The position numbers and the translations under genes were made by a program. Below, in pieces: positions 3,542 to 64,000 of a stretch of DNA of 64,000 nucleotides. The notes below the pieces were generated by a model that saw only the letters and a list, made by a program, of their open reading frames with translations, had not been told where the DNA came from and did not search any database. Origin of the DNA: an uncultured Candidatus Saccharibacteria bacterium (GTDB lineage: Bacteria; Patescibacteriota; Saccharimonadia; Saccharimonadales; UBA4665); contig CAYHMQ010000003.1 of NCBI GenBank assembly GCA_964357905.1, positions 26,855 to 90,854 of the forward strand. The letters run 5' to 3'. Every line of letters starts with the position of its first letter. The stretch's first letter is position 1.

Positions 3542-3550
3542 ATTGTAACA
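3542..3550 (-). promoter_or_regulatory. candidate extended -10 promoter (TGTTACAAT) for the rpsL-rpsG-fusA operon
   Basis: The minus strand reads TGTTACAAT about 10 nt after the rpoC stop and about 90 nt upstream of the rpsL ATG. There is no clear -35. Confidence 0.35.
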
Positions 3551-3559
3551 GGTTTGGAT

Positions 3560-6500
3560 CTAGACTTCAACTGCTGCTGGCTCTGGCGTACCAATGATTT
3601 GCTCGGCTTCTGCGGCCAGCTCGTCCTGTTCTTCCTCTTCGTCAGTCTTGACACCGGTACCGACAGGTATCTTGCGGCCTAGGATGACGTTCTCCTTAAG
3701 ACCGTACAGCTTGTCGACTTTACCACTGGTAGCGGCAGCTATCAGGACACGGGTAGTGTCTTGGAAGGACGCCGCGCTCAGGAAGGAGTCAGTGCTAAGA
3801 CTAGCCTTGGTAATACCAAGTAGCAATTGGTTGTACTTAGCCGGGCTCTTGCCGGCGGCAACTAGTGCCTCATTGGCTTCGACCACGGCTAGCTTACTGA
3901 CGATATCACCAGTTACGAAGTCACTGTCGACAGCTTCTTCAATCTGGACTCGGCTAAAGATCTGACGCACGATGATCTCGAGATGCTTGTCAGCAATATT
4001 CTGGCCTTGGGCAGCGAAAATCTTGAGAATCTCGCTCATGATGTAGCGCTGAGTGGATTCAACACCCTGCAAGCGAATTAGGTCTTGAAGATTGATTGAA
4101 CCGTTGGTCAAACGCTGACCGGAAACAACCTTGTCGCCATCCTTAATCTGTAATTGCTTGAAGCCTGGGATTTCGTAACGCACAACGCTCTGCTTGGTAG
4201 GCGTGATGACAACTTCCTTGTTGGTAACGTGAGCTTTGCCGGCCATTGGCGCGATCAGCGGCTCAGAAGCGTCTTCTAGAGCTGCCACAACATCACCAGC
4301 TACGACCTCGGTGCCATTAGCAACTTGGGCTTTGCGCTCACCAAGCTTGAGAGTAACTTTCTCTTTGTCGTCGGCAGTAACTTGAACGATGTAGTGATCG
4401 CCTTCTTCCCAAGTGTTAGCCACGCCAGAAATCTCAGTAACGTAGGCCTGCCCCTTAGGTGAACGAACTTCGAAGAGCTCTTCAATACGGCTCAGACCCT
4501 GCGCCGTGTCATCTGCAATGGCACCACCAGAACGGTGCTTGGAGTCAAGGCTCAGCTGCGTACCAGGTTCACCAATACTCTGTGCGGCAATGACGCCGAT
4601 TGGGTGATTGTTAGCAACGAGTTCGCCGGTAGCTGGGTCAACGCCGTAAGATTTCTGCGAAACGCCACGAACGTTAGTGCAGCTTAGGCCGCTCATGATC
4701 TTGATGCCATCAATCGATTCATCGTTGCCAATCTTCTCAGCAGCTTCCTCAGTAATGAGTTCGCCCTTCTTGGTCAGACCCTTACGAGTCTCAGCTGCAA
4801 AACGGCCGGTCAGACGCGAAGCGTAGCTCACGCCGATGTAGGCCGCATCTTCACGTAGCATTGCGAAGCCAGGATCACTAGTATCATCTTCTATCGTGAA
4901 GACGTCTTGTGAGACGTCCACCAAACGACGAGTCAAGTAACCAGCATCAGCTGTCTTAAGCGCAATGTCGATCAACGCCTTACGGGTACCACGGGTACCG
5001 GTGAAATACTCTAGTGGGTTCAAGCCGTTGATGTAACCAGACTTAATCGGCAGCTCAATGACGTTACCACCGGCGTCCTGCAAGACACCCAGCATACCAA
5101 CGGCATTGTTAAGCTGCGAAATGTTACCACGAGCACCAGAGTTAATAGCGATCGCCATCGAAGAATCCTGACCGACCATCTGTTCGGTCAGCATGTCTTG
5201 CACCTTACCCTCAACCTTGGTCCAGTTATCGACGGTCAATCGGTGACGCTCATCGTCGGTAATGAAACCTTCGTCGTATTGGTCAGAAATAGCCGCCGCA
5301 CGGACTTCACCCGCGTCAAGCTGTTTGTCCATGCCCTCAATTGGTGCGAAGTCGCCCATACCCATGCTTAAGCCTGATAGGGTAGCGTAATAGAAGCCTA
5401 TGTCCTTGAGGTCATCAGCAATTTCGGCGGTCTTCTCTTGACCGTAACGAGCGTAGACTTTGGCCATCACAGCCTGCAGTCGTTTCTTAGTCATAGTCTC
5501 ATCCTGAAGCGGAAAGTCCTCGGGGAAGATTTCGTTAAACAACAGACGCCCGAGGGTAGTGACACGAATTTCACCACGGAAAGGCAGACGGACTTGACTC
5601 TGGAGCGTAATACCACCGTTGTCAAGAGCCATCAGTGCCTCTTCTATGCTAGAGAAGTTGACTGCGTCCTTATTGGCGTTCTGTGGTCTTTCGTAAGTCA
5701 GGTAGTAACAACCAAGCACGATGTCCTGCTCGATGTGCAGAATCGGCGACCCATCAGCTGGCTTAAGTAGGTTGCGGTTGGCGGCCATAATCTCACGTGC
5801 CTCAGTCTGTGCCTTGTCGCTCAGCGGCAAGTGAACAGCCATCTGGTCACCATCGAAGTCGGCGTTAAAGCCTTTACAAACTAGCGGATGCAACTGGATA
5901 GCGCGACCCTCGATTAGAACCGGCTGGAAGGCCTGAATACTAAGACGGTGTAGCGATGGCGCACGGTTAAGTAGTACGTATTTGCCCTTAATGACTTCGT
6001 CAAGAGCATCCCAAACAGCAGTTTCGCCCATTTCGATCAGTCGGCTGGCGCTCCTAATGTTGTGAGCCTGTTCGCGGGCAATCAGTTCACCAATTACGAA
6101 TGGCTTGAATAGTTCTAGAGCCATCATCTTCGGCAAACCACACTGGTTGATCTTGAGCTCCGGACCAGCCACGATAACTGAACGACCGGAGTAGTCAACA
6201 CGCTTACCAAGCAGGTTCTGACGGAAACGACCCTGCTTGCCCTTAAGCATGTCGCTCAGACTCTTCAGGCGGCGGCGTTGGCCTGTAGCAGCTACAGCGC
6301 GGCCAGAACGGGTACTGTTGTTGTCGATCAAAGCGTCTACAGCTTCTTGAAGCATACGCTGTTCGTTGCGACAGATGACTTCTGGCGCATTGAGACCCAT
6401 TAACTTCTTAAGACGGTTATTGCGGTTGATGACACGACGGTAAAGGTCGTTAAGGTCGCTAGTTGCAAATCGGCCACCGGTGAGTTGAACCATCGGACGA

Positions 6501-7424: not shown

Positions 7425-10400
7425 TTAGACCTCCCCTCCTTCGTCAGTGTCTGCAACGGCATCATCTCCATCTGATCTGTTCGATCCATCACTGGATACG
7501 AGGGCGAGATCATCAGCGTTGGCTTGGGCGTCAGCACTGCCGCTATCATCTACGGTCACAATGCTAAAATCTTCATCACCGCTAGACTCTTCGGTCACAT
7601 CAATGTCCGAGATAGCTGCTTGTGGCACTTCGACTTCGGCTGGATGTGCGGCTTCGTCTTGAATATTGCTAGCCAAGACGGCTTCGGCATCAACGACGGT
7701 GTCAGAGTGAACTAGATCGACTTTAAGGCCAAGACCTTGAAGCTCCTTAACCAGTACGTTGAAGCTTTCCGGTACTTTTGGCCCGACAATCTGAGTCTTC
7801 TTGATGATCGACTCGTAAGCCTTGCTTCGTCCGTAGACGTCGTCAGACTTGATGGTTAGCATTTCCTGCAAGGTGTTGGCAGCGCCGTAAGCTTCGAGAG
7901 CCCAGACTTCCATTTCGCCGAAGCGTTGTCCACCGTTCTGGGCTTTACCGCCCAGTGGCTGCTGGGTAACCATAGTGTATGGACCAGTTGAGCGGGCATG
8001 AATCTTGTCCGCAACCATGTGGTTCAGCTTAATCATGTACATTGAGCCGACTGTGGTGCGCTCGCTAAAAGGCTGGCCAGTGCGGCCATCAAATAGCTGT
8101 TGCTTACCGTCTTCGGGCAGGCCTGCTTCCTTAAGCAAGGAGTGGATCTTATCGACTGGTGCACCGTTAAAGGATGGGCTGGCAACCTTGATACCAAGAG
8201 CACGAGCCGCCATACCAAGGTGAGTTTCGAACAATTGTCCAACGTTCATACGAGATGGTACGCCGAGGGGGTTAAGTACGATTTCGACGGGTGTGCCGTC
8301 TTCCATAAAAGGCATGTCCTCAACTGGCAGGATCCGAGCAATAACGCCCTTGTTACCGTGACGACCACCAAGCTTGTCACCAACAGCTATCTTGCGCATC
8401 TGAGCCACGAAGACTTGGATTTGCATGATGACACCAGCTTTTAGCTCGTGACCGTTCTCGCGGCTGAAGACTTTGACACCGACGACTTTGCCGTGCTTGC
8501 CGTTGCTCATGCGCTGCGAGGTATCGCGGACTTCCTTGGCTTTTTCGCCAAAGATGGCGCGCAGCAGGCGTTCTTCTGAGCTAAGTTCTTGCTCACCCTT
8601 AGGTGTAATCTTACCGACTAGAATGTCGCCGGGGTGGACTTCGGCACCGATGCGAACGATACCGTCCTCATCAAGGTGGCGCAGAGTCTCCTCAGAAACG
8701 TTAGGAATGTCGGAAGTTACAATTTCAGGCCCAAGCTTGGTCTCGCGAACTTCAATCATGAAATCAACGATGTGAACCGATGTCAGCGTGTCGTCTTCGA
8801 CTAATTTGCGACTGATGATGATAGCGTCTTCGAAGTTGTAACCGCCCCAAGGCATGAAAGCCACGACCAGGTCTTTGCCAAGTGCTAACTCGCCGTCAGC
8901 AATTGACATGCCCTCTATCAGGACATCGCCCTTCTTGACCTTATCACCAGTGTTAACAACAACTTTTTGGTTGACAGAGGTGCCTTCGTTGCTGCGGATG
9001 AAACGCTGTGGCTCGTACTTGATGTTGCCTTCCTTGTACTTAACGACAACTTCTTGGGCGGTAGCCTTGGTGACTTCACCAGCGGCTTCGGCTAGGATGA
9101 CCTGACCAGTGTTACGAGCGGCTTCTAGTTCCAGACCAGTACCAACGATCGGGCTGGCTGGTTGGATCAAGGGAACGGCTTGACGCTGCTGGTTGCTGCC
9201 CATTAGTGAGCGATAAACATAGTTCTTCTCAATGAAAGGGATCAAGCCGGCGCTGCTGCCGATGATCTGATCGCGCGAAGCGTCCAAGTGAGTAACGTCG
9301 TTGGCGTCGACTTCACCAGGCTGCAGACGTGAACGAGCACTGACACGCTCATGCAAGAAATAGTCGTTAGCATCAAGCTCACTACCACCACCGGCGATAA
9401 CGGCCGACTCTTCTTCGTAGGCGTCAAGGTAAATGATGTCATTAGTGGCCTTGGCCTTGACTGGCCAAGTGACCTTAGAGGTAACCTTGGCTAGCTTCTT
9501 AGCATCAGCTGCGCTAATCTTGGCACCAGCTTTGACAAGAACTTTGCCCTTGTCGTCTGTCAAATCTTGAGCGGCAAGGTGGCCGACAATATCTTTAGGC
9601 GTGGCGGCGTTGATAACCTTGCGGTAAGGTGTCTCGATGAAGCCGTAATCGTTGACACGAGCATAGTTAGCTAGGTTAAGAACTAGGCCAATGTTGGCGC
9701 CTTCGGGGGTCTCAACGGCACAAATACGACCATAGTGAGTAGCGTGGGCGTCACGGACTTCGAAGCCGGCGCGTTCGCGGCTTAGTCCACCGGGGCCCAT
9801 TGAGCTTAAGCGTCGCTTGTGAGCTAGTTCGCTGAGAGGGTTAATCTGATCCATAAACTGGCTTAGTTGGGAGCTAGCGAAGAATTCGCGAACAGCCGCC
9901 ACAATTGGACGGGCGTTGATGAGCTGGCCAGGAGTAACAGTCTCGATCTCGGACATGCTCATGCGATCCTTGGTGTTGCGCTCCATGCGCAGCAGACCGA
10001 TACGGAACTGGCGCTGAACTAGTTCGCCGACCAATTTGACACGTCGGTTAGCCAAGCTGTCGATATCGTCAGCCGGATCCTGAGTGTTATTAAGCCGCAT
10101 CAACTCGGCGATAATAGCTTCGATATCCTCTAGGCGCAAAACGCGGTTCTCTAGCGTGTTAGGAATATCCAGGTCGAGGCGCTTATTGATCTTGTAGCGG
10201 CCGACGCGGCTGAAGTCAAAGCGCTTGTAGTTGTAGAACATGTTCTCGATTAGCGACTTGGCATTATCGACAGTAGCTAGATCACCTGGGCGCAGACGAC
10301 GATAGACTTCGATAAGGGCGTCGTTCTGGCCCTTAGTTGGGTCCTTTTCTAGCGTTGCTTCTAGGTAGCTGCGTTCGCCGGTGTCAACGTGCTTGAAGGT

Positions 10401-11024
10401 CTCTTTCATGCGAGCTTCGGTGACACCGAGAGCACGTAGCAAAGTAGTAACGGCTAGCTTTCGCTTACGGTCAATCTTAACGAAGAGAGCGCCGTTGGCA
10501 GCCGTCTCAAACTCTAGCCACGCACCACGGCCTGGGATAACCTTGGCACCATATAGGCTAGTTGCGCCATGCGGATCAGACGTAAAGAAAACGCCAGCTG
10601 AGCGGATCAGCTGGCTAACGACGACGCGCTCGGCACCGTTAATCACAAAAGTACCGCGGGCAGTCATCCAAGGATAGTCACCGAGATAGATCTCTTGCTC
10701 TTTGACTTCGCCAGTAACCTTATTAGTCAGTTCAACCTGAGCCATCAGGGGAGCTTCGTAGCTAACGTTGTTCTCACGAGCTTCAGCCTCGGATAACTTG
10801 GTCGGGCCGAAGTGATAATCCTTAAAGCGAAGTGATAACTTACCGCCGGTGTAGTCGTCGATCGGGCTGATTTCGGCCAAAAGCTCGCCCAAACCTTCTT
10901 CTACAAACCATTGGAAGGACTTGTTCTGATGGTCTACCAAGCTTGGAAGCTGGATAGCGTCATCTGTCTTAGTAAAATATTGTCGTTGTGTCTTAGCCTT
11001 AGTAGTAACCGGTGCTTTCGCCAT
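7425..11024 (-). CDS. rpoB: DNA-directed RNA polymerase subunit beta, with a 94-aa acidic C-terminal tail
   Basis: Full-length beta subunit with motifs such as GDKLGGRHGNKGV and NPLGVPSRMN. The tracked start at 11030 is TTG. The ATG two codons later (11024, MAKAPV) is the likelier start. Confidence 0.96.
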   Translation of the reverse strand: MAKAPVTTKAKTQRQYFTKTDDAIQLPSLVDHQNKSFQWFVEEGLGELLAEISPIDDYTGGKLSLRFKDYHFGPTKLSEAEARENNVSYEAPLMAQVELTNKVTGEVKEQEIYLGDYPWMTARGTFVINGAERVVVSQLIRSAGVFFTSDPHGATSLYGAKVIPGRGAWLEFETAANGALFVKIDRKRKLAVTTLLRALGVTEARMKETFKHVDTGERSYLEATLEKDPTKGQNDALIEVYRRLRPGDLATVDNAKSLIENMFYNYKRFDFSRVGRYKINKRLDLDIPNTLENRVLRLEDIEAIIAELMRLNNTQDPADDIDSLANRRVKLVGELVQRQFRIGLLRMERNTKDRMSMSEIETVTPGQLINARPIVAAVREFFASSQLSQFMDQINPLSELAHKRRLSSMGPGGLSRERAGFEVRDAHATHYGRICAVETPEGANIGLVLNLANYARVNDYGFIETPYRKVINAATPKDIVGHLAAQDLTDDKGKVLVKAGAKISAADAKKLAKVTSKVTWPVKAKATNDIIYLDAYEEESAVIAGGGSELDANDYFLHERVSARSRLQPGEVDANDVTHLDASRDQIIGSSAGLIPFIEKNYVYRSLMGSNQQRQAVPLIQPASPIVGTGLELEAARNTGQVILAEAAGEVTKATAQEVVVKYKEGNIKYEPQRFIRSNEGTSVNQKVVVNTGDKVKKGDVLIEGMSIADGELALGKDLVVAFMPWGGYNFEDAIIISRKLVEDDTLTSVHIVDFMIEVRETKLGPEIVTSDIPNVSEETLRHLDEDGIVRIGAEVHPGDILVGKITPKGEQELSSEERLLRAIFGEKAKEVRDTSQRMSNGKHGKVVGVKVFSRENGHELKAGVIMQIQVFVAQMRKIAVGDKLGGRHGNKGVIARILPVEDMPFMEDGTPVEIVLNPLGVPSRMNVGQLFETHLGMAARALGIKVASPSFNGAPVDKIHSLLKEAGLPEDGKQQLFDGRTGQPFSERTTVGSMYMIKLNHMVADKIHARSTGPYTMVTQQPLGGKAQNGGQRFGEMEVWALEAYGAANTLQEMLTIKSDDVYGRSKAYESIIKKTQIVGPKVPESFNVLVKELQGLGLKVDLVHSDTVVDAEAVLASNIQDEAAHPAEVEVPQAAISDIDVTEESSGDEDFSIVTVDDSGSADAQANADDLALVSSDGSNRSDGDDAVADTDEGGEV

Positions 11025-11265: not shown

Positions 11266-11293
11266 TTGATTTTTTTACTATTTATGTTAATGT
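11266..11293 (+). promoter_or_regulatory. candidate promoter (TTGATT-16-TAATGT) ending 7 nt before the ATG at 11301
   Basis: Hexamers read directly. No SD lies between the -10 and the ATG. Confidence 0.4.
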
Positions 11294-11300
11294 TACATAA

Positions 11301-12416
11301 ATGTACGAATTCTCGTCTGAAGCCCCGATCCAGATGCGTGAGCAGCGCTATAGCCGCCTCTTTGACGGCGAATTAATGTACATTAACCCAAGTCAGGCTC
11401 AGGTGGACCTAGGTATGAGCGCTCTTGCTAGAACTACTAATCGCGCTGGTGCGCGTCCGCCAGAATTAAGCGAACACCTGGAGACACTGCCACTAATCAT
11501 TGATAATATTTTAGAGAGGCATGACCTTGATGCTTTTGGCTGGCCTCCCTACGAATTGGATGGCGGCTCCGCAAATGCACTCTTCGGTTTTGTAAGTCCA
11601 GAGGGTCAGGAAATTGTTACTGGCATCGTAGCCGATATATTTAGACAGTGGGAAATTACTCGAAGTCGTCATGGTTTACAGCCATTAGCAACTGAGGGCG
11701 ATAGTGATGCGCGCTGGCTGGTAGTTGAAACAGCCGCTGCCGTTATGTATTGTGCGGCCAATTCATCAAACTTCAACTTGATTAAGAACCGTTCTGACAG
11801 AGAGAGTATAGCAAAGATCATAACTTGCTGGGGGCCTAAGTTCGCCGAAAAGTGGTTCGATGGCACCATATTGAGTAACTGGGCAGCTCAAAATAACATG
11901 ACAGAAGAAGAACTTGAACATTGGCGCGCAACTTTTAGCCCATCGACCCTCAAACATCTTGCCGACACTAACACGAGCGACCCATTGGGTGCGCTGGAAA
12001 AAATTAAGCACCATCTCGAAGTCACCTTAACCGACCAAAATATTGCCAAACATTTGGGCTGGAGCCGGACTCAAGTGTCAGAGACATTTAGCGCCAGCGA
12101 AAGAATGAAGTTTGCAGTACACAATCGAGCCAACCCGATAGGCGCCCTCAAACAAGTCAAGGATCACTTAGAAATGACCCTCACGGATGAGAGTTTAGCT
12201 CAATACCTGGGTTGGGAAGAGGCTAAGGTCAGGCAAGTTTTTACAGCTTACACTCGTAAATGCTTGGCAATCTCATACCGTAACGATCCTCTGAGTGCCT
12301 GCAAAGCCTGGGCGAGTGGCAAAATTAAGATAACTGCTACAAACGATTCGACGCGGGACAACAAGCTGTCGGGCAACGGTTATACCAAATTAGACGATTA
12401 TATGGTTGCGGTCTAG
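11301..12416 (+). CDS. hypothetical protein with tandem 51-aa helix-turn-helix-like repeats
   Basis: 371-aa ORF in a divergent orientation to rpoB. The C-terminal half carries two full repeats and one partial repeat. No family recognised. Confidence 0.7.
11979..12350 (+). repeat. in-frame 153-nt (51-aa) tandem repeat, two full units plus a partial third
   Basis: Unit 1 is [37 protein letters not shown] and unit 2 is [37 protein letters not shown]. Unit 3 starts [10 protein letters not shown]. Units start at 11979, 12132 and 12285. Confidence 0.8.
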
Positions 12417-13009
12417 GTCTGCTTGGGCGGGCTGTTGATAACGTCGTCGACAATGCCGTACTTCTTGGCGTCTTCGGCGGTTAGCCACTTGTCACGTTCC
12501 ATGTCTTCATGGATCTTCTTGACCGTTTGGCCGGTGTTTTTGGCCATGATTTCTTCGAGTAGCTTCTTGACTCTTAGGCTTTCGCGCAAATCGATTTCCT
12601 GGTCGGTAACCTTGCCGTGGGTGCCAGATGAGGGTTGGTGAATCATGACTGTCGAGTTAGGCAGCGTAAAGCGCTTGCCCTTGGTGCCACTGCTGAGCAA
12701 GAAGGCGGCGGCGGAAGCTTGTACGCCAATGCCGACCGTCTGGATATCATTGCCGACATACTGCATAGTGTCATAAATGGCCAGGGCGTCATAAACACTG
12801 CCGCCAGGACTATTAATGTAGAAAAAGATATCCTTCTTGGCATCCTCAGCCTGCAAGAACAGCAACTGCGCAACAACTATGTTCGCACTGGCCACGTTGA
12901 CGTCGCTGCCCAGGAAGATAATTCGGTCCTTGAGCAAACGGCTATAGATGTCATAAGCTCGCTCGTAACGGCCTTCGCTCTCGATAACGGTTGGGATTAG
13001 TACACTCAT
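12413..13009 (-). CDS. clpP: ATP-dependent Clp protease proteolytic subunit
   Basis: 198-aa ORF containing YINSPGGSV, the catalytic Ser context [11 protein letters not shown], and MIHQPS. Confidence 0.95.
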
Positions 13010-13016
13010 GGGGTTC

Positions 13017-13045
13017 AGTATAAGAAATTAGCACTCTCTAGTCAA
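13017..13045 (-). promoter_or_regulatory. clpP promoter TTGACT-17-TATACT, with the -10 ending 7 nt before the ATG (leaderless type)
   Basis: The minus strand reads TTGACTAGAGAGTGCTAATTTCTTATACTGAACCCCATG. No SD is present. Confidence 0.55.
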
Positions 13046-13054: not shown

Positions 13055-13936
13055 AAAGCCGCTTCTAGCGTGCCTGGTTCTGTCTTCTGGACTCATGACC
13101 ATCCGTCTAGAGTACCCGCCATTCATACCAGTAATGAAAGATACGTCGCCGTAACCGGCGTATATTTTACCGGTAGGTATCCACCCGTCGTCCGCAATAC
13201 AGCCCCCGTCGTCCGGCGCAAGAGAGATATCCCACACATAGGTTTTCCTATCAATAACGCCTGTAGTCTCTGGCTCAGGGTTGGTGCTACGCCATCGACT
13301 TGCTAGTACTGCCCCTGCAAATAGGTCTGCCGGCCACACATAAGGATGCTCTTTCCTAACCATGTCGAGAGCTTCAAGTTGGAATACGACTTTGTTTGGA
13401 TCAAAATTTCTCTCGTCCCTCAGCCTTGGCCCCACTCGATTCACATCATACCCTGTTTCCATTGCCACGAAACGGACTGGCCTTTCAGGATGTTCCGAGC
13501 TGAACTGACATAGCAGTCTTGGATCCCATTGTCTGAGGTCTCTCCAAAAATTTCTTTCCATATAACGATATGGTCTTTTTTCTCTTTTGGGACCAGCGTA
13601 ATCCCAAGCCCCTACAACTTCTTCATGGGTCAAATCGTAGTGAGGCACAGCCTGCAGAATCACAGGATCCGCATCTGTTGAGTATAACCCTGCGTTGATG
13701 GCCTCTATTACGCCTTTGCTCTCATCAATCCATTCTTCTGCCATGTCAGGCAACTTACCCTCAGGAACTATTGCGAGTTCACTTCCTTCAGACTCAGAGC
13801 GACCGGCTATGATGTTTTCGGCAATTCCGGTGTATAATCCAGCCGTTTCAGCTTCTATCGTTGATAGGAGCATGTCCTTTGTGACGATAGATTGTTCGCC
13901 GGATGTTCGACTAGGAGACGTTCCAAAACTACCCAT
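13028..13936 (-). CDS. hypothetical protein (orphan)
   Basis: The open frame runs to 13981 (317 aa). The ATG at 13936 (MGSFG..., 302 aa) has TATTAT 7 nt upstream, whereas 13981 has no promoter or SD. No family recognised. Confidence 0.6.
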   Translation of the reverse strand: MGSFGTSPSRTSGEQSIVTKDMLLSTIEAETAGLYTGIAENIIAGRSESEGSELAIVPEGKLPDMAEEWIDESKGVIEAINAGLYSTDADPVILQAVPHYDLTHEEVVGAWDYAGPKREKRPYRYMERNFWRDLRQWDPRLLCQFSSEHPERPVRFVAMETGYDVNRVGPRLRDERNFDPNKVVFQLEALDMVRKEHPYVWPADLFAGAVLASRWRSTNPEPETTGVIDRKTYVWDISLAPDDGGCIADDGWIPTGKIYAGYGDVSFITGMNGGYSRRMVMSPEDRTRHARSGFLALLTREC

Positions 13937-13992
13937 AGCCACAATAATACTGTGCTCGCATGAAATTGCAAAACTAGCCATAGCGCCAAAAA

Positions 13993-14021
13993 TTGATTTC
14001 CCCTCATTACTACGCTAATAT
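13993..14021 (+). promoter_or_regulatory. moeA promoter TTGATT-17-TAATAT, with the -10 ending 9 nt before the ATG
   Basis: Hexamers read directly. No SD is present. Confidence 0.5.
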
Positions 14022-14030
14022 TTGGCATAG

Positions 14031-15233
14031 ATGATCTCAGTAGAAGATGCTGAAAAACTCGTACTATCCCAATCTAGAGATTATGGGGTCGATAATATCC
14101 CGCTTGGCGAAGCGCTAGGTAGAATACTGGCTGAGCCGGTTATTGCCGACAGAGATTTTCCTCCTGCTAACAGAGCCACTATGGACGGGGTGGCTATAAA
14201 TTATCGTAGCTTCTCCAAAGGCCAGCGGATGTTTAGTGTCAAGGCTGTGCAGCCGGCAGGCAACAAGACTGTATCAATTAGTAAACCAGATCAGTGCATC
14301 GAGATAATGACAGGGGCAATACTGGACAACACGGTTGACACAGTCATACGTATTGAGGATGTTGATTTAAGGAATGGTCATGCTCTTATTACCACAGATA
14401 ATATTACGAGGGGTCAGTTTATTCACCGTCGCGGAGTTGACAAAAAACGTGGCGATCAAGTCGCAACTGCAGGCAGCGCTATTACGCCAACAACGATAGC
14501 CGTGTTAGCTAGCGCAGGCTATTCCTCAGTTAAAGTCAGAAAACTTCCTGACATTATCATCATGACCACAGGAGATGAACTTGTTGGGATAGATCAAAAG
14601 CCACGTGATTATCAACTTAGGCGATCCAATGACTGGGCAATAAGGTCAGTACTAGAAAGTTTGATGATAAAAACCGATACTCTGCATTTACCCGACAACG
14701 AGCAAATAATAAGGCAAGCCATCAGCGAATCATTGAAGAAATATGATGTTGTTTTACTTAGTGGCGGCGTATCCAAAGGAAAATACGACTATGTACAATC
14801 ATGTCTGGATAGTTTAGCCGTTAAGAAGATCTTTCACGGCGTCAGCCAGCGACCAGGCAAACCATTTTGGTTTGGTGTTTCCGGCAGCAAACTTGTATTC
14901 GCCTTTCCGGGTAATCCAGTTTCTTCGTTATTGTGTCTTTACCGATATTTTGTGCCTTGGTTAACTAAATCCCTTGGCGAGATGAACAAACAGCAAGTCA
15001 ATGCAATCTTGGACGAGTCTCTGCCGTCTAATGAACTTCTTACTCAGTTTGTGCCGGCAAACTTATCAATTGACGAATTCGGCCAGCTCTGCGCCGCACC
15101 AATCGCCAACAATGGCTCGGGTGATTTCATTAGCCTAGTCAAAGCCGACGCCTTCGTAGAGCTTCCCCCAAGTAAATCCATAAACCAAAAGGGTAGTCCG
15201 TACCGAGCCTGGCCGTTCGAACACATTGCCTAG
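14031..15233 (+). CDS. moeA: molybdopterin molybdenumtransferase
   Basis: 400-aa ORF with MoeA-type motifs TMDGVAI, GGVSKGKYDY and FPGNPVSS. Confidence 0.9.
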   Translation: MISVEDAEKLVLSQSRDYGVDNIPLGEALGRILAEPVIADRDFPPANRATMDGVAINYRSFSKGQRMFSVKAVQPAGNKTVSISKPDQCIEIMTGAILDNTVDTVIRIEDVDLRNGHALITTDNITRGQFIHRRGVDKKRGDQVATAGSAITPTTIAVLASAGYSSVKVRKLPDIIIMTTGDELVGIDQKPRDYQLRRSNDWAIRSVLESLMIKTDTLHLPDNEQIIRQAISESLKKYDVVLLSGGVSKGKYDYVQSCLDSLAVKKIFHGVSQRPGKPFWFGVSGSKLVFAFPGNPVSSLLCLYRYFVPWLTKSLGEMNKQQVNAILDESLPSNELLTQFVPANLSIDEFGQLCAAPIANNGSGDFISLVKADAFVELPPSKSINQKGSPYRAWPFEHIA

Positions 15234-15279
15234 TGTTTTGGACGCGCCTTAATCTTTCGAGCGTACTATAATAATAAGT

Positions 15280-15888
15280 ATGAGTGCCCGCCAAACCAGC
15301 AAGCCCAGTCTTTACGGCTTGGTGCTGGCCGGCGGCAAAAGTCGGCGCCTGGGCCATGACAAAGGCCTGATCGAGTGGCTCGGCAAACCTCAGCGCTACT
15401 ATCTGGCTGACTTGCTGGCTAGACATTGTGACGGCGCATATATTTCCTGTCGACCAGACCAAGTTGGGCAGATCGAACAATACGAGGCAATTTCTGATAT
15501 TTATCCTGATCTCGGCTCGTACGGCGCGTTATTGTCGGCCATGAGCCATTATCCGGATAAAAGTTGGCTGGTGGTAGCCTGCGACATGCCTTTCGTCGAC
15601 GATGACGCGATCGACAATCTCATCAAGCAGCGCGACGCTCAAAAACTGGCAACCGCCTACTTCAACCCCGAAAACGGCTTGCCGGAACCAATGTTGGCTA
15701 TCTGGGAGCCGACGGCCTTTGATAGGCTAGTCAGACTATCTAAGGCTGGACTTGACTGCCCGCGTAAGGCATTGATTAAGTTTGGCGACGAGGCAAACCT
15801 CGTTCGGCCACACCGTGCGGAGACAATTATCAATATTAACACGCCTGCTGATAAGGCGGCGGCCGAGGAAGCGTTGGCAAGCAAATGA
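15280..15888 (+). CDS. mobA: MobA-like molybdenum cofactor nucleotidyltransferase
   Basis: 202-aa ORF with the N-terminal motif LVLAGGKSRRLGHDKGL. TATAAT lies 7 nt upstream of the ATG. Confidence 0.8.
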   Translation: MSARQTSKPSLYGLVLAGGKSRRLGHDKGLIEWLGKPQRYYLADLLARHCDGAYISCRPDQVGQIEQYEAISDIYPDLGSYGALLSAMSHYPDKSWLVVACDMPFVDDDAIDNLIKQRDAQKLATAYFNPENGLPEPMLAIWEPTAFDRLVRLSKAGLDCPRKALIKFGDEANLVRPHRAETIININTPADKAAAEEALASK

Positions 15889-16928
15889 ACATGGCAGAAC
15901 GTTATAGCTGTCAGTTGCCCTTGGACGGATTCGGGTCGGCGGCTCAGCAAAAGTTGTCCAAGGCCAAAGTTCTGATAGTCGGTGTCGGGGGGCTGGGCTG
16001 TCCGGCTGGTCTGTACCTGACAGCTATGGGCATTGGCACTCTGGGCATAGCCGATTTTGACAAAGTCAACAAAAAGAATTTGCATCGGCAGGTGCTCTAC
16101 GGTGATTCCGATGTGGGCGAGCTAAAAGCCAAGGTCGCTTCAAAGCGCCTTGAGCGACAAAACCCTGCCACCAGGGTGATAGCACACACCGAAAAAGTCA
16201 CAGACCAGAACGTCATGGAGCTACTAAGCCAGTACGATGTTGTCATGGATTGTACGGACAATTTCGACACCAGATATCTGCTTAACGACGCTTGCGTGAT
16301 GGCAGGCAAGCCATTGGTCTACGGCGCTATCTTCCAGTACGAGGGTCAAGCTGCCGCCTGGAACGTTAAGAATTCCGACGGATCAATGTCGCCTAACTAT
16401 CGTGATGTATTTCCGTCCGCTGACGATAGCCAAATCCCCAACTGTGCGGATGGTGGCGTTATTCCGACTATTGCAGGCATAATCGGTTGCGTTCAGGCTA
16501 ATGAGGTCATCAAGTACATAGCCGGTATTGATGATTTACTGAGTGGCAAATTATTTATCTTTGATGCTAAAACCATGAACAGTTACATAACCAAGTTGCC
16601 GCATTCCAGTGGGGTCAGTATTAAGTCCTTGCCCGCCCAGCCACAAATCCCCCAAATCCCTGCCAAGGAGCTAAAATCCGCAATCGATAAAAATATCTAC
16701 GAGCTAATCGACGTACGCACACCCGAGGAGCATTCGGCTCGCAATATCGGCGGCAAAAATATTCCTCTCGACAGGCTCGACGAGCGACTGGACGAAGTCG
16801 ACTTCGCGAGACCCGTGGTGTTTTACTGCGCCTCAGGTGCGCGCAGTTCGGCAGCCGTCAAAAGCACCATGACAACGCATCCCGAAGCCACGATGATGTC
16901 GCTGAGCGGCGGAATTAACGCTTGGTAG
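15885..16928 (+). CDS. moeB: MoeB/ThiF-type adenylyltransferase fused to a C-terminal rhodanese domain (MoeZ-like)
   Basis: Contains the nucleotide-binding loop VLIVGVGGLGCP and the C-terminal rhodanese loop FYCASGARS. ATGA overlap with the mobA stop. Confidence 0.88.
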   Translation: MNMAERYSCQLPLDGFGSAAQQKLSKAKVLIVGVGGLGCPAGLYLTAMGIGTLGIADFDKVNKKNLHRQVLYGDSDVGELKAKVASKRLERQNPATRVIAHTEKVTDQNVMELLSQYDVVMDCTDNFDTRYLLNDACVMAGKPLVYGAIFQYEGQAAAWNVKNSDGSMSPNYRDVFPSADDSQIPNCADGGVIPTIAGIIGCVQANEVIKYIAGIDDLLSGKLFIFDAKTMNSYITKLPHSSGVSIKSLPAQPQIPQIPAKELKSAIDKNIYELIDVRTPEEHSARNIGGKNIPLDRLDERLDEVDFARPVVFYCASGARSSAAVKSTMTTHPEATMMSLSGGINAW

Positions 16929-16970
16929 ATTCTTGATGGACGTTTGGCAATATGAGTCAGCCCTTCAGAC

Positions 16971-17390: not shown

Positions 17391-17397
17391 ATTAACC

Positions 17398-17631
17398 TCA
17401 ACCGCCGTTGGTGGGGGGTATTATGGCTATCTCGTCGCGCCGACGGATAATTTGATCGTCTTGGGCGTACTCAGCGTTTATGGCCAGCATGAACTCGGGT
17501 AGTGCCGAGTATTTTGTCTTGAGCATGGCGCGCAAATCGTCGGCAGAAGAACCGTCATCGAGATTCAGCTCGACAGTTCTGTGCCCCAAGATATCCTTGG
17601 CAATTCCAAAGGCCAGTATTTTTACAATCAT
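17398..17631 (-). CDS. moaD: molybdopterin synthase sulfur-carrier subunit (ThiS/MoaD fold)
   Basis: 77 aa counted from the ATG at 17631 (MIVKILAFG...), ending in GG. The longer tracked ORF (start 17700) would overlap the upstream transporter gene. Confidence 0.8.
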   Translation of the reverse strand: MIVKILAFGIAKDILGHRTVELNLDDGSSADDLRAMLKTKYSALPEFMLAINAEYAQDDQIIRRRDEIAIIPPTNGG

Positions 17632-53300: not shown

Positions 53301-54029
53301 GACGCATAGCAATATTTCGTGGGCAGCTTGGTCTTCATGCTTGAGATAGTGGGCGTCACAAGTCACTACGCAAGGAATATCAAGCTCTTTGCTAAGCTGA
53401 ATTAACTGATCATTAATGCCCTTCTGAACTGTCCAATGCGCCGGATGATCGGGGTGGCCGTGATCTTGGATTTCGAGATAATAACGATCACCAAAGGTCT
53501 TCTTATACCACTGCGCTAGTGACTTGGCTTGATCATATTGACCTTGACGCAGAGCATCGCCAACTTCACCGCTGGCACAGCCGCTTAGACAGATTAGACC
53601 TTCGTTATACTGCTCCATCAGAGCATGGTCGATACGCGGCTTGTAATATAGACCCTCGAGGTTGGCAATGGTCGAAAGCTTCATCAAGTTTTGGTAGCCC
53701 TGTGCGTTCATGGCCAGCAAGATCACGTGATAATACTGCTTGTCCTTGGCCGGATCACGATCATCAATACTGCGAGACGCGACGTAAGCTTCCATGCCAA
53801 TAATTGGCTTGATGTCGGCGGCCTTGGCCTTCTTGTAAAACTCAATGGCGCCACTAAGAGTGCCATGGTCAGTCATAGCCACCGCCGTCATGCCGCTGTC
53901 TTTGACGTGTTCGATCAGCGGCGGTATCTTAGTCAAACCGTCGAGCAAGCTATACTGCGTGTGATTGTGCAGGTGCACATAGTCGCTAGCGACAAGCGCC
54001 GTCTTTTTTTTGGCCAAAATATCCCTCAA
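50355..54029 (-). CDS. dnaE: DNA polymerase III alpha subunit
   Basis: 1224 aa with a PHP domain (HLHNHTQYS), a polymerase core and an OB fold. TTG start at 54029 with TAAGGT upstream. Confidence 0.95.
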   Translation of the reverse strand: MRDILAKKKTALVASDYVHLHNHTQYSLLDGLTKIPPLIEHVKDSGMTAVAMTDHGTLSGAIEFYKKAKAADIKPIIGMEAYVASRSIDDRDPAKDKQYYHVILLAMNAQGYQNLMKLSTIANLEGLYYKPRIDHALMEQYNEGLICLSGCASGEVGDALRQGQYDQAKSLAQWYKKTFGDRYYLEIQDHGHPDHPAHWTVQKGINDQLIQLSKELDIPCVVTCDAHYLKHEDQAAHEILLCVQTGSFLSDERRMSLKEFDLHVNKPEEVIERWGAEYPDFITNTRAVAARCDLTLDLGKILIPKFPVPKGETEKSYLEKLVYRGLSRRYGRTLSGKRIASKEAKVMTIADAKKTLSKEVLDRARYELGVIEQMGFNGYFLIIADFVGWGKDQGIVFGPGRGSAAGSIISYALKITELDPLEYDLLFERFLNPDRISMPDVDIDIQDNRREEVIQYCVDKYGKERVANIVTFGRMAARNAVRDVSRVLQVPYAEADRLAKMIPPPIQGRHILLETSLRENRDLKQEYETNETAREVFDLAVQLEGTIRSHGVHAAGVVIAPEDIVHYTPLEMAQKGVIATQYSMGPIEDLGLLKMDFLGLSNLTIIKNALRIIKRVHHKDIDISTIPLDDNTTYELFQRGDTTGVFQFESAGMKRYLKELKPTVFDDLIAMNALYRPGPMQWIDDFINRKHGKRVIEYLHDKTQNALENTYGILVYQEQVMQIAKDLCGFSGGQADTLRKGVAKKKPEVLAALKKDFIDGALKNSDISKSKIEEFWRSLEAFAAYCFPKAHSSCYATIAYQTAYLKAHYPAAFMAALMTSDYDDTDRLAIEITECKHMGITVLPPDVNESFVEFSVVPDKDQIRFGMAAIKNVGTGAVEEILRARNDGNFESLEDFLSRVSNRIVNRKPMESLVKAGAFDRFGDRTTLLHNLDMLLAYAARLQKQASSGQTDIFGDAIDDKSVQRPGLELQIPSEVADSREQLLWERELLGLYLSQHPLELFETILSEQTVPINTLTHDHDGKQVSIGGAITDFREITTKTGQRMAFVKLEDRYGEIEAILFPNSYQQTIGLWERDRVVLIRGKINARDKEGNRSSEVKIMVDDAREITAQQASAYEATGKKRKTPKARAAVKHKPTVVATAKSPEAEAADQRLYIRLVNTSDEQTLRSLKETIDSHQGETEVVLVLGASDSKQAIKLPTGIDRASEGLTKLETLVGSDNLVLR

Positions 54030-54079
54030 GAAACCTTATATCCGTTACTAATTATAACACTTGTCTAGAGGACTAGAGC

Positions 54080-54490: not shown

Positions 54491-54744
54491 TATTTTTTGC
54501 GCCCTTTCTGAGTTAACTTAATGATATTGCTGATAAGCTTGAAGAAAGCCAGCCGGCCTTGGGTGTCCTTGAGGACTTCTGCGGCTGATTCGACAGAATC
54601 AACTACGTCTTCGGCCTTGGCAGCAACCCGCCTAATACTGGCAAGTAGTTGCAGCAACCCGATGACTAGAGCAATGCAGAGTATAAAAAAGATGCTTAGC
54701 AAACTGGTCAGAACGATCAATAGAACTTCTTCAGTTGTAGTCAT
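54490..54744 (-). CDS. DUF948-like small membrane protein
   Basis: 84 aa with one TM segment plus a coiled coil. Typical partner of YtxH. TATAAT lies 6 nt upstream of the ATG. Confidence 0.6.
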   Translation of the reverse strand: MTTTEEVLLIVLTSLLSIFFILCIALVIGLLQLLASIRRVAAKAEDVVDSVESAAEVLKDTQGRLAFFKLISNIIKLTQKGRKK

Positions 54745-54771
54745 ATACTTATTATATAACTAGTTGTGCGC

Positions 54772-55683
54772 TTAGCCCAATTTTTTACGCAAATGCTCTT
54801 TGAGCTCGGCGCCAATGTCGTCACGCTCCAGGGCAAAATCGAAGACTGTCTTGAGGTATTCTAGCTGGTTGCCAGTGTCGTAATACGTGCCTTCTTTGAT
54901 TTCGCAGCCATATATGTGATGACCGTCTTCGACCATGCGCTGCATGGCTTCTTGAATCATGAATTCTCCGGATTTGTCATAAGTATCGAGTTCTTCCTCG
55001 AGGTATTTGAGAATGACAGGGTCGAACACGTAGCCGCTGACTGAGGCTAGATCTGATGGGGCTTTGTCACGACTGCCTGGCTTCTCGACTATGGTCTCCA
55101 TATCAATCAGGCCAGGGCTGATTTCTTTGCCAGCAATATAACCATAACGAGAGTAATCGGCATCGGAATCTCTTCGCACACAGGTTAGAACTGAACCACC
55201 CTTATCAGCGTGGACTTGCAGCAATTGCTCAAAACGACTAGGATTTGAGGCCACGAAGTCATCGGCAAAAGTATAGATAAACGGCTCGTCGCCCATCAGG
55301 TGAGCGGCGTTGAGTAGCGGTGTGCCGGTTCCGTATGGGCCCTTCTGCCTTATGTAGGCGAAATTGGCCAGGCTGGAAATCTTAGCTGTGTCTTCTAGCA
55401 GTTTGTCCTTGCCAGCTTGTTGTAGGTTGGCCTTGAGATCGGCGCTAAGGTGATCGAAGTGGTCCTCTATGGTGCGCTTATGATAACCAGTCACGATCAC
55501 TATGTCAGTAATGCCGGCCTGGCAAAGTTCCTCGACAATGTGCTGGATAATCGGCTTGTTGACCAGAGGGAGCATCTCCTTGGGCATGGCCTTGGTCTGT
55601 GGCAAAAACCGCGTTCCAAAACCAGCCGCGGCGATAACTGCTTTGCGCACACGTGGCTGATCAGATTTCTGAGGTTGGCTCAT
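54772..55683 (-). CDS. galU: UTP--glucose-1-phosphate uridylyltransferase
   Basis: Contains KAVIAAAGFGTRFLPQTKAMPKEMLP. I chose the ATG at 55683. The tracked start at 55716 is TTG. Confidence 0.9.
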   Translation of the reverse strand: MSQPQKSDQPRVRKAVIAAAGFGTRFLPQTKAMPKEMLPLVNKPIIQHIVEELCQAGITDIVIVTGYHKRTIEDHFDHLSADLKANLQQAGKDKLLEDTAKISSLANFAYIRQKGPYGTGTPLLNAAHLMGDEPFIYTFADDFVASNPSRFEQLLQVHADKGGSVLTCVRRDSDADYSRYGYIAGKEISPGLIDMETIVEKPGSRDKAPSDLASVSGYVFDPVILKYLEEELDTYDKSGEFMIQEAMQRMVEDGHHIYGCEIKEGTYYDTGNQLEYLKTVFDFALERDDIGAELKEHLRKKLG

Positions 55684-55690
55684 TGCTACG

Positions 55691-55699
55691 ATTGTACCA
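55691..55699 (-). promoter_or_regulatory. extended -10 promoter TGGTACAAT, 7 nt upstream of the galU ATG
   Basis: Read directly in the 34-nt gap after the Nudix gene. No SD is present. Confidence 0.45.
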
Positions 55700-59504: not shown

Positions 59505-59797
59505 TATCCGATCATCCGCTTAACTTTGATCTGTCCGTTTTGTTTGGCCGGCAAATTATCAAGCAACTTCTCCGGCGCGTAGCCGTAGTCAGCGACTTCG
59601 TCACGACGTGTAACATTGGTTAATCCAGTAACTTGGTTGGTTGGTTTGAGGCCTTTGACATCAACGCTACCCAGCTGTTCGACGTATTGCAATATCTCAG
59701 TCAGCTCAATGCTGTACTCTTCAATTTCATCGTCAGTCAGCTCAAGCCTAGCCAATCGAGCTAATTTCAACACATCTTCTCGGGTAAGTTTCGCCAT
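59504..59797 (-). CDS. gatC: Asp/Glu-tRNA amidotransferase subunit C
   Basis: 97 aa counted from the ATG at 59797 (MAKLTREDVLKLARLARLEL). The tracked ORF start at 59959 is an upstream extension. Confidence 0.88.
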   Translation of the reverse strand: MAKLTREDVLKLARLARLELTDDEIEEYSIELTEILQYVEQLGSVDVKGLKPTNQVTGLTNVTRRDEVADYGYAPEKLLDNLPAKQNGQIKVKRMIG

Positions 59798-59807
59798 GTT
59801 ATCTACA

Positions 59808-59837
59808 ATTGTAACAGAGGGGTTGCCATTAGTTGAA
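59808..59837 (-). promoter_or_regulatory. gatC promoter TTCAAC-18-TACAAT, with the -10 ending 10 nt before the ATG
   Basis: Read directly. The -10 lies in the palindrome TACAATTGTA. Confidence 0.4.
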
Positions 59838-61944: not shown

Positions 61945-62002
61945 ATCTTTGTTTGCACAGCCTCATAAATTACATATAAATAACCACATCATGTTGCTCG
62001 TG

Positions 62003-63967
62003 TCAAAGTTTGGATTTTATTGCTTTAATGATGTCGCGCAACTCGGCGGCGGTTTCAAACTGGAGATTAGCAGCAGCCAGATCCATCTGCGCCGAAAGAT
62101 CCTTGATCAAGGCGCCATACTCTTCCTTAGGAATCTTCTTGAGGTTAAGCTTGGCGGTCTTGGCTTCTTGGTCTAGCTCGGGTCGCATCCCAGCTTCAAC
62201 TGCGCGCTTGATTCCGGTCGGGGTAATGCCATGCTCCTGGTTGTAAGCTTCTTGGATTTTGCGGCGACGCGTGGTTTCGTCGATGGTTGCCTGCATACTC
62301 TTGGTTACCGTGTCGGCATACATGATGACATGCCCCTTCTCATGCCGAGCAGCGCGGCCAACTGTTTGAATCAGAGCCTGTTCACTTCTCAGGAAACCTT
62401 CCTTGTCGGCGTCAAGAATGGCCACTAGGGAAACTTCTGGCAAATCCAGCCCCTCGCGAAGCAGGTTTATCCCAACTAGCACGTCATAAACACCCAGCCG
62501 CAGATCGCGCAAAATATCGGTTCGATCGAGCGTATCGACGTCACTGTGCAGATAGGCTACCTTAATATTTAACTCCTTGAGGTATTCGGCGAGGTCTTCG
62601 CTCATGCGCTTGGTCAGCGTGGTCACCAGCACACGCTGATGCTTGGCCGTGGTGTCACGAATCTCGGCAATCAGATCGTCTATCTGGCCTTCGATAGGCC
62701 TTACCTCGATCGGGGGATCGAGCAAGCCAGTCGGCCTGATCACCTGCTGGGCAGGTTCGGGACTCCTTGACAGTTCATATTCGGCTGGCGTAGCTGAGAC
62801 ATAGACGACCTGATTAACATGCCTTTCGAACTCTGTGAAAGTCAGCGGCCGGTTGTCTAAGGCGCTGGGCAGGCGGAAGCCGTGCTCCACCAGCACTTCC
62901 TTGCGCGCCCGATCACCGTTATACATGCCGCGGACTTGCGGAATCGTCATATGTGACTCATCGATCATGAACAGATAGTCATCCGGGAAATAATCCATCA
63001 AGGTTGCCGGTTGCTCGCCCTCTTCGCGGTTGGTCAGGTAGCGTGAGTAGTTCTCAATGCCCTTCACGAAGCCGGTTTCCTGCATCATCTCCAGATCAAA
63101 ACGCGTGCGCTGCTCGATGCGTTGCGCCTCGATAAGCTTGCCCTGCTTCTTGAAGTCTTTGACGCGCTGTTGCAGCTCTGATTCTATCTGTCCAAGAGCC
63201 AACTTGAGTTTCTCCTGTGGCGTTACATAGTGCGAACTTGGGAAAATCTTATAACTATCGGGCTTGGCCAGAATCTCACCGGTCAAAGGATCGATCTGGG
63301 TAATCCGCTCTACATCGTCACCGAAAAATTCCATTCGATAAGCCAGTTCTTCGCCAGCCGGGAAGACATCAACCACATCGCCCCGAACTCGAAAAGTACC
63401 ACGGCGAAAGTCTATGTCGTTGCGCTGGTACTGGATGTCCGTTAGCTGCCGCAGGAACTTGTCACGCACCTTGCGTTCACCGACTTTGACGTTCACGGAC
63501 AGGCCGTCATAGTCATCGACCGAGCCAATTCCATAGATACAACTGACGCTGGCTACGATAATCACATCCTTGCGACTCAAGAGAGAATCAGTAGCGGCGT
63601 GGCGTAGACGATCGATCTCCTCGTTAATCTGGCTGTCTTTCTCGATGAAAGTATCCGAACGGGCAATATAGGCTTCAGGCTGGTAATAATCGAAGTAGCT
63701 AACGAAGTAATGAACGGCGTTATCGGGGAAGAAATGTTTGAATTCGCTATATAGCTGGGCGGCCAACGTCTTGTTGTGGCTAAGAATCAGTGTTGGCTTC
63801 TGGACGTTCTGAATGAGGTTGGCCATGCTAAAGGTCTTGCCCGAACCCGTCACACCCTTCAACACCTGATGTTTCAAGCCGCCCTGAAGACCCTTGGTCA
63901 ACTGGTCAATCGCCGTCGGCTGATCGCCGGTAGGCTTAAAGTCGGCCTTTAGCTGAAACTTAGACAT
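62003..63967 (-). CDS. uvrB: excinuclease ABC subunit B
   Basis: 654 aa containing [12 protein letters not shown] and a C-terminal UVR domain. TACAAT lies 6 nt upstream of the ATG. Confidence 0.96.
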
Positions 63968-64000
63968 CTACTAATTGTATAACTTCACGCCACGCTAGCC

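Follow-up and report, generated by a model that had tools for sequence, protein, structure and literature searches.

In the 64 kb stretch of DNA analysed here (the window, meaning the whole stretch), over half of the genes at the head of a transcription unit carry a -10 box 6-10 nucleotides (nt) from their ATG and lack a Shine-Dalgarno (SD) sequence, an arrangement from which transcripts are predicted to start at or near the start codon; a probability of roughly 0.85 is assigned to this leaderless reading. What was observed directly is the hexamer motif, where it lies, its promoter character, the dichotomy between boxed and SD-led genes and the conservation of the arrangement. The window comes from an uncultured member of the Saccharibacteria (TM7, candidate phyla radiation or CPR) found in groundwater. 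The best relatives of its RecG protein at no more than 85% amino-acid identity are found only in metagenome-assembled genomes (MAGs) labelled Candidatus Saccharibacteria or Saccharimonadales, and groundwater metagenomes are the source of the DNA sequencing runs that match the stretch.

The preliminary description of this DNA had listed 23 combinations of hexamer, gap and ATG, the gap being the number of nucleotides between the -10 hexamer and the start codon. Each pair was checked by script and all 23 are exact in the sequence. They are given here together with hisS, which was absent from that list; ORF stands for open reading frame.

11288-11303, plus strand: orf371; -10 hexamer TAATGT preceded by TGt, gap 7, ATG 11301.
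13007-13045, minus strand: clpP (Pfam CLP_protease); -35 hexamer TTGACT at 13040-13045, 17 nt spacer, -10 hexamer TATACT at 13017-13022, gap 7, ATG 13009.
13934-13949, minus strand: orphan ORF; TATTAT, gap 7, ATG 13936; the longest-ORF ATG is 13981; no homologues, the start resting mainly on the box.
14016-14033, plus strand: moeA; TAATAT, gap 9, ATG 14031; MoeA_N profile from residue 2.
15267-15282, plus strand: mobA; TATAAT, gap 7, ATG 15280.
17629-17650, minus strand: moaD (ThiS family); TGtTACAAT, gap 10, ATG 17631.
21731-21750, minus strand: tig; TGtTAGGAT (weak hexamer, extended -10), gap 8, ATG 21733.
23646-23665, minus strand: hisS; TATAAT, gap 11, ATG 23648; the leader would be about 4-5 nt.
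ATG 25722, minus strand: his leader ORF; TGgTATAAT at 25731-25739, gap 8.
26089-26104, minus strand: ORF at 26091; TATAGT, gap 7, ATG 26091.
30265-30280, minus strand: recG; TATACT, gap 7, ATG 30267.
30515-30533, minus strand: ORF at 30517; TATAAT, gap 10, ATG 30517.
31421-31439, minus strand: methyltransferase; TATACT, gap 10, ATG 31423; TATACT at 5-13 nt in orthologues.
32704-32721, minus strand: tyrS; TATACT, gap 6, ATG 32709; alternatively TACTAT, gap 7, adjacent ATG 32706.
42384-42405, plus strand: pepN; TGtTAAACT, gap 10, ATG 42403.
45949-45965, minus strand: ORF at 45951; TATAAT, gap 8, ATG 45951.
46914-46932, minus strand: rnhB; TGcTAAACT, gap 7, ATG 46916.
47495-47535, minus strand: rplS; -35 hexamer TTGCAA at 47530-47535, 17 nt spacer, -10 hexamer TACAAT at 47507-47512, gap 9, ATG 47497.
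49187-49203, minus strand: pilB; TATACT, gap 8, ATG 49189.
49257-49272, plus strand: SpoU/TrmH-like methyltransferase; TATAGT, gap 7, ATG 49270.
54742-54756, minus strand: small membrane protein (formerly "DUF948"); TATAAT, gap 6, ATG 54744.
55681-55699, minus strand: galU; TGgTACAAT, gap 7, ATG 55683.
59795-59816, minus strand: gatC; TGtTACAAT, gap 10, ATG 59797.
63965-63979, minus strand: uvrB, near the window end; TACAAT at 63974-63979, gap 6, ATG 63967.

The gap is 6 nt at three of the 23 originally listed sites, 7 nt at nine, 8 nt at four, 9 nt at two and 10 nt at five; the start codon is ATG at every one of them, and TGn stands directly 5' of the hexamer at eight. Two other hexamers were rejected as chance matches: TAATCT with a gap of 9 before orf49870, where the true promoter, judging by orthologues, is some 25 nt upstream, and TAAGCT with a gap of 6 before rsmD, where orthologues have no promoter.

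The enrichment over shuffled controls that the preliminary description proposed to measure was found. With the start of every one of 52 non-shadow ORFs set mechanically at its first ATG, independently of the earlier choices, TANNNT occurs at a gap of 6-10 in 22/52 genes, against 5.9 ± 2.2 (maximum 15; z 7.3) when their 60 nt upstream regions were shuffled 2000 times with dinucleotides preserved. For hexamers matching TATAAT in at least five of six positions the corresponding figures are 14 genes and 1.6 ± 1.2 (z 10). Other 5 nt gap bins in these upstream regions hold 1-7 genes each, with 12 in the bin 11-15, and the background at internal in-frame ATGs and at all window ATGs is about 1-2% per position. 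The box is present in 21/38 genes that have a spacer of at least 10 nt or a divergent neighbour, compared with 1/14 abutting or overlapping genes. An SD-like 4-mer precedes 1/22 boxed and 11/30 unboxed genes (Fisher p 0.008), which upholds the earlier statement that boxed genes have no SD. In a control stretch of E. coli K-12 with annotated starts, 2/42 genes are boxed and 26/42 are SD-like.

Some 160 related loci were available for comparison, in a recG-centred set (L001-L080) and a pilB-centred set (L081-L160; 80 loci, 1.36 Mb). Across this clade 380/915 (42%) of mechanically called leading genes are boxed, as are 108/282 (38%) of the leading genes without an orthologue in the window, and the gap profile peaks at 6, 7, 8 and 9 (128, 92, 73 and 76) over a background of about 25. 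These figures bear on the possibility that the pattern is a product of chance and composition, arising from AT-rich intergenic DNA together with the in-frame TAA or TAG that precedes a first ATG. The upstream regions do have about 60% A+T, compared with 49% for the window, and some starts had been chosen with the box in mind. Mechanical starts nevertheless recover 21/23 of the listed sites, the shuffle maximum of 15 falls short of the 22 genes observed and other distance bins are 3-5 times lower. Since the clade peak covers gaps 6-9 rather than only multiples of 3, an artefact of in-frame stop codons is excluded, and the pattern is conserved over 56-79 species per gene. A chance origin is thus hardly credible.

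Comparison between loci gives the leaderless reading its strongest backing. For recG, in 55/60 loci from other Saccharibacteria (56-85% amino-acid identity) TANNNT, mostly TATACT, lies 6-8 nt before the ATG; a few orthologues have GTG behind the box, and the flanks around the box have diverged to the point of not being alignable between loci. A box at 5-11 nt is likewise found in orthologues of pepN (93%, 52/56; SD-like in 9%), rnhB (82%, 51/62; 6%), rplS (91%; 20%; gap 9 in 51/60 boxed), pilB (78%, 62/79; 11%), the trmH-like gene (93%, 68/73; 10%), the small membrane protein at 54744 (92%, 37/40; 12%) and galU (68%, 13/19; 16%). The inverse profile is shown by orthologues of nusA (box 0%, SD 96%, 51/53), ytxH (0%, SD-like 94%), gatB (0%, 76%), clpC (7%, 76%), dnaE (3%, 60%) and radA (17%, 83%). 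The proposed ATGs, whose conservation the preliminary description had suggested checking, are retained in position in 56-79 species per gene. The predicted leaderless architecture is a property of the whole Saccharimonadales clade, conserved gene by gene.

Individual genes show further variation. Among tyrS orthologues of the recG-centred set, 28/63 have the box 6-7 nt from the ATG, and the alternative state is a TATACT 25-35 nt upstream with an SD-like leader; these two states indicate that leaderless and leadered forms interconvert within the clade. At locus L145, from an activated-sludge relative, metatranscriptome contigs of strain variants (10453-10641) have the spacer upstream of rnhB replaced or deleted, one variant still showing TATAAT with a gap of 7 at the same ATG. 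A hydrolase-like ORF (26758-26862, minus strand) begins 18 nt after tRNA-Leu, and it begins 4-21 nt after the tRNA in 8/14 relatives; the loci compared include L004, L012, L016, L017 and L021. In this tRNA-adjacent position it has neither SD nor box, and in loci that lack the neighbouring tRNA it is preceded at 6-9 nt by TANNNT. Processing of tRNA-Leu may create a near-leaderless 5' end for this ORF.

The identity of the hexamer was examined in 355 clade sites aligned solely on T1, A2 and T6. At the free positions A accounts for 75% at position 4 and A or C for 84% at position 5, and an extended -10 is apparent from T (47%) at -3 and G (54%) at -2. There is also a T-T-G signal at 21-23 nt upstream, with TTG present at a 16-18 nt spacer in 25% of sites compared with 2-6% at control spacers. 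The start codon is ATG in 349/355 sites, a count that is biased because the mechanical rule picks the first ATG. Within the window, clpP (TTGACT-17-TATACT-7-ATG) and rplS (TTGCAA-17-TACAAT-9-ATG) have textbook promoters, and TGnTAnAAT is also found 20-90 nt upstream of the SD-led dnaE, MsrQP-like, PBP and nusA genes and of orf49870. Judged by these base preferences, the hexamers represent the -10 of sigma-70-type promoters with the consensus TA(t/c)A(a/c)T, often with TGn and with a weak -35, and not a translation signal.

The alternative assignment, that the hexamer acts in translation within a longer leader as a non-SD ribosome-binding sequence, an S1 or standby site or an unstructured AT-rich stretch, has a precedent of sorts, in that signals of this type have been proposed for Bacteroidota and cyanobacteria and an AT-rich bias of debated meaning occurs near -10 to -20 of non-SD genes in several phyla (PMC5397173); in the window, orf49870 has an A-rich leader without SD. 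A role in translation is very unlikely here, however, given that the T-A....T pattern with A at position 4, the TGn and the TTG at 16-18 nt have no translational function, that the identical motif stands 20-90 nt upstream of SD-led genes, that boxed genes are spaced or divergent rather than operon-internal and that the anti-SD system is clearly used by other genes.

The SD-led genes form the contrasting class. All six SD sequences named in the preliminary description are exact in the sequence; they are listed here with two leadered genes.

7430-7440, minus strand: SD of rpoC, AGGAGGGGAGG; ATG 7423, operon-internal.
3459-3465: SD of rpsL, AAGGGAG.
2268-2274: SD of fusA, AAGGGAA.
25578-25583: SD of hisG, AAGGAG.
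37352-37357: SD of radA, AAGGAG.
17396-17399: SD of moaE, GAGG.
42236-42362, minus strand: nusA; promoter TTGACT-17-TATACT (42362-42334), leader of about 90 nt, SD AAAGGA at 42248-42253, ATG 42238.
54027-54064, minus strand: dnaE; TGtTATAAT about 23 nt upstream of TTG 54029, short leader with AAGG.

Leaders are present in rpoB/rpoC, rpsL-rpsG-fusA, nusA, clpC, radA, dnaE, hisG(D), the MsrQP-like gene, the PBP gene and orf49870, and operon-internal genes have either an SD or overlapping stop and start codons, spacers of -4 and -1 being frequent. Several large information-processing and chaperone genes thus keep leaders, some with attenuator-like hairpins, and other housekeeping genes are leaderless. 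The promoter that nusA has to itself is a strong one, and the leader behind it contains a terminator-like hairpin at 42322-42306, which may be an autoregulatory attenuator. In orf49870 (49825-49872, plus strand) a conserved TGnTAnAAT lies about 25 nt upstream, and the leader is A-rich and devoid of SD in 48 orthologues of the pilB-centred set; this gene represents a third class, with a short non-SD leader. In the PBP (transglycosylase) gene (32776-32819, plus strand) TATAAT is only 2 nt from ATG 32784, which probably lies outside the mRNA, the likely start being ATG 32817. A GGAGG precedes an out-of-frame upstream ORF of seven codons (ATG 32797), and relatives retain TGcTATAAT and the stretch 'ATGAGGGA'.

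The preliminary description held that the box also corrects start codons misplaced by the longest-ORF rule. This applies to rplS, tig, gatC, galU, trmH and moaD, whose corrected starts fit Pfam boundaries or orthologues, and lacks such support for the ORFs at 13936, 26091, 30517 and 45951. For rplS (ATG 47497), positions 2-108 of the L19 profile align to residues 4-111, and most of 120 close homologues have a length of 173-183 residues. Trigger_N aligns from residue 1 of the tig product (ATG 21733). The GatC domain begins at residue 20 and is consistent with a 97-residue protein, and the longest-ORF GTG 59959 was rejected in favour of ATG 59797; for moaD the longest-ORF TTG 17700 was rejected for ATG 17631. 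The longest rpoC ORF (ATG 7549) overlaps rpoB by 125 nt, and its true start, ATG 7423, overlaps the rpoB stop codon; this error is corrected through the SD AGGAGGGGAGG and not through a box.

These start assignments bear on a further alternative, in which the promoters are real, the true starts lie further downstream behind ordinary SD-less leaders and the leaderless appearance is an artefact of annotation. It draws some strength from the four ORFs without a family, whose starts are unverified, from the two adjacent ATGs of tyrS and from the PBP gene, where the true start is probably downstream of the first ATG. As a general explanation it is nonetheless quite unlikely, because Pfam profiles start at residues 1-4 of the proposed tig, moeA, rplS and rnhB proteins, tblastn alignments to orthologues start at residues 1-8 of the proposed proteins, the ATGs are retained across species as described above, the next in-frame ATGs have no preceding SD and the conserved distance of 6-9 nt between box and ATG would be unexplained if the ATG were unused.

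The leaderless reading goes beyond direct observation in two respects, the position of transcription start and the mode of ribosome loading. Transcription start sites are centred 7 bp downstream of the -10 element across bacteria (PMC12641261), in agreement with the distance of about 7 nt given in the preliminary description. If transcription begins at the usual spacing of 6-8 nt from the -10, gaps of 6-8 make the A of the ATG the first base of the transcript; RNA polymerase would start on this A at 16/23 sites, and gaps of 9-11 would leave 1-5 nt ahead of the ATG, not enough to hold an SD. The resulting mRNA would lack a usable 5' leader and an SD, and the ribosome would initiate on the 5'-terminal AUG. 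Downstream genes of an operon would initiate via an SD or overlapping stop and start codons, and a minority of units would keep an SD leader.

Several observations limit this scheme or weigh against it. Gaps of 9-11, found at five to seven sites, imply short leaders rather than none; for the seven listed entries with gaps of 9-10 the leader would be 2-4 nt. Searches of sequencing runs with the window matched no RNA run, only groundwater DNA runs. In wastewater metatranscriptomes, contigs related to L145 are short, undirected, of low depth and 95-99% alike, and are neutral on 5' ends; they also cross divergent intergenic regions, possibly via DNA carry-over. The ORFs at 13936, 26091, 30517 and 45951 were assigned to no family, and their reality or starts rest mainly on the box. 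The -1 base is a pyrimidine in 65% of boxed and of unboxed genes alike and thus adds no support for transcription starting at the A. A scan of the window requiring both promoter hexamers was not enriched (22 against 16.3 ± 4.7) and caught only the rplS and nusA promoters, a result attributable to the weakness of the -35. Finally, no more than 13-35 nt separate several boxed genes from the gene before them, with no terminator between. The promoters of such genes would sit inside the 3' end of the neighbour, and read-through transcripts may also exist; the clpP promoter, for example, is located in the 3' end of the gene upstream and the 18 nt spacer.

Two generalizations of the preliminary description have accordingly to be narrowed. 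The description of boxed genes as first in their operon agrees with the preference of the box for spaced or divergent genes and is loose for those 13-35 nt behind a neighbour. Leaderless initiation as the default would apply to the majority of leading genes in the window, about 21-23 of about 38 (roughly 55-60%), and not to all, since leadered units remain.

One of the boxed ORFs is itself a putative regulatory leader.

25607-25739, minus strand: his leader region, comprising the promoter, the leader ORF and a terminator hairpin, followed by AAGGAG-hisG.

The leader ORF has 19 codons (MLKQFSNQHHVHIQPERHG) and extends from ATG 25722 to TAG at 25663-25665. Histidine occupies codons 9, 10, 12 and 18 (HHVH and one more), that is 4/19 with no long run. 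The terminator hairpin at 25607-25632 reads GCGCCGGA-CATCGC-TCCGGCGC-TTTT, and GCCGGAGCG at 25673-25681, inside the leader ORF, has 9 nt of complementarity to the terminator loop and 3' arm. This arrangement fits a predicted leader-peptide attenuation starting from a leaderless AUG. Leaderless small ORFs have been reported in mycobacteria. The enterobacterial his leader (Rfam His_leader) shares the short ORF with His codons, the intrinsic terminator and the pairing of an ORF segment with the terminator 3' arm; it differs in that only 4 His codons, not a run of 7, are present here and in that the ORF start here would be leaderless. Against attenuation stand the few His codons and the absence of a His_leader match in an Rfam scan of the window, which gave tRNA-Leu as its sole gathering match and no other leader RNA. 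No orthologous arrangement was found among the best 80 hisD relatives (L162-L241). These are almost all from Bacteroidota, with 52-58% amino-acid identity to the hisD of this locus (hisGD, 23668-25571, minus strand), and in the single Saccharibacterium among them the genes are ordered differently. Horizontal transfer from Bacteroidota is the probable origin of the short hisG-hisD pair. hisS directly follows hisD, and the remaining histidine pathway is absent from the window.

The window has a G+C content of 50.8%, and its single tRNA is tRNA-Leu. The gene names of the preliminary description are supported by Pfam, except that the DUF948 gene gave no Pfam hit and is a small membrane protein. 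Pfam-backed genes are fusA, rpsG, rpsL, rpoC, rpoB, clpP, moeA, mobA, that of a ThiF-rhodanese protein, moaE, moaD, tig, hisS, hisD, a short hisG, recG, tyrS, radA, that of a ClpC-like ATPase, nusA, pepN, rnhB, rplS, pilB, the SpoU methyltransferase gene, dnaE, galU, gatCAB and uvrB. The stretch 14031-20348 contains a molybdenum-cofactor set (moeA, mobA, the ThiF-rhodanese protein, moaE and moaD, plus an MFS transporter) together with a single protein that fuses a cytochrome b561 and a molybdopterin oxidoreductase domain (MsrQ-MsrP-like), equipment that is metabolically unusual for a CPR bacterium. The product of orf371 (11301-12416, plus strand), divergent from rpoB, matches sigma-70 region 3 and a Crp-type helix-turn-helix weakly, below threshold, and may be a divergent transcription factor.

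For annotation, these results mean that gene callers based on the longest ORF or trained on SD sequences will misplace starts in MAGs of Saccharibacteria and CPR bacteria; in the window the errors include at least rplS, gatC, galU, moaD, trmH and several small ORFs, and the distance from box to ATG offers a cheap rule for correcting them. Leaderless translation as such is known from Actinobacteria, Deinococcus and archaea, and with the present case a deep-branching lineage of reduced genome size joins the bacteria whose translation would be mainly leaderless. This bears on whether such translation is an ancestral trait or one linked to genome compaction and reduced ribosomes. It is possible, though tentative, that a leaderless default that is ancestral, selected, maintained for individual genes in more than 100 species and toggling extends across Saccharibacteria and perhaps the wider CPR, taking in tRNA-processed 5' ends and a leaderless His attenuator. 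If so, the reduced CPR translation apparatus would be specialized for recognition of the 5'-terminal AUG, and Saccharibacteria would share an expression grammar with their actinobacterial hosts. The ribosomal protein bS1 of CPR bacteria mostly has 3-4 S1 domains (PMC9297842).

Published sequences from cultured Saccharibacteria (PMC10633639, Table S4) include the TM7x NS2 arm, with TTGACA-17-TATATT-6-ATG, the S. epibionticum gene 0377 (TATAAT-9-ATG) and speE (TATGAT-7-ATG). In the same table tuf, cas9 and ftsZ have SD leaders, the TM7x tuf promoter being TTTACA-17-TATAAT followed by a leader of about 80 nt and AAGGAG. Both the leaderless-type and the SD-leadered class are therefore represented in cultured members of the group. 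Saccharibacteria have recently become transformable, with cassettes that use the leadered tuf and rpsJ promoters (PMC10633639); TGnTAyAaT-6/8-ATG, as the arrangement of most native units, would be a compact expression signal and would predict which heterologous genes are expressed. Among the papers searched, none tied leaderless mRNAs to Saccharibacteria, Patescibacteria, CPR or TM7x beyond reference lists, and an earlier automatic classification of genomes of this type is possible.

The architecture itself is a known one, that of GeneMarkS-2 group C, in which a Pribnow box lies about 10 nt from first-in-operon starts and SD sequences are used elsewhere, and which is frequent in Actinobacteria and Deinococcus-Thermus (PMC6028130). 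In M. tuberculosis 40% of operons are leaderless, the box standing 6-8 nt ahead of the start codon; in D. deserti 167/262 mapped genes are leaderless (PMC6028130). Its occurrence here is a known architecture in a new lineage, useful and not surprising to a specialist. The window resembles the group C genomes (M. tuberculosis, M. smegmatis, Streptomyces, Corynebacterium and D. deserti) in the box at about 6-10 nt, the lack of SD on leading genes, the SD on internal and leadered genes and the high fraction of predicted leaderless units. It differs from them in having about 51% G+C rather than a high-GC genome, in its clean TAyAaT -10 with frequent TGn and in a very compact genome organization, with promoters often embedded in the 3' end of the gene before; the architecture is moreover known here from sequence and there from mapping of transcription start sites. 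A leaderless majority of leading genes with SD on internal genes is shared with the archaeal group D (Haloferax and Sulfolobus), in which, however, a TATA box and BRE lie about 26 nt upstream, whereas here a -10 of bacterial type stands at about 7 nt.

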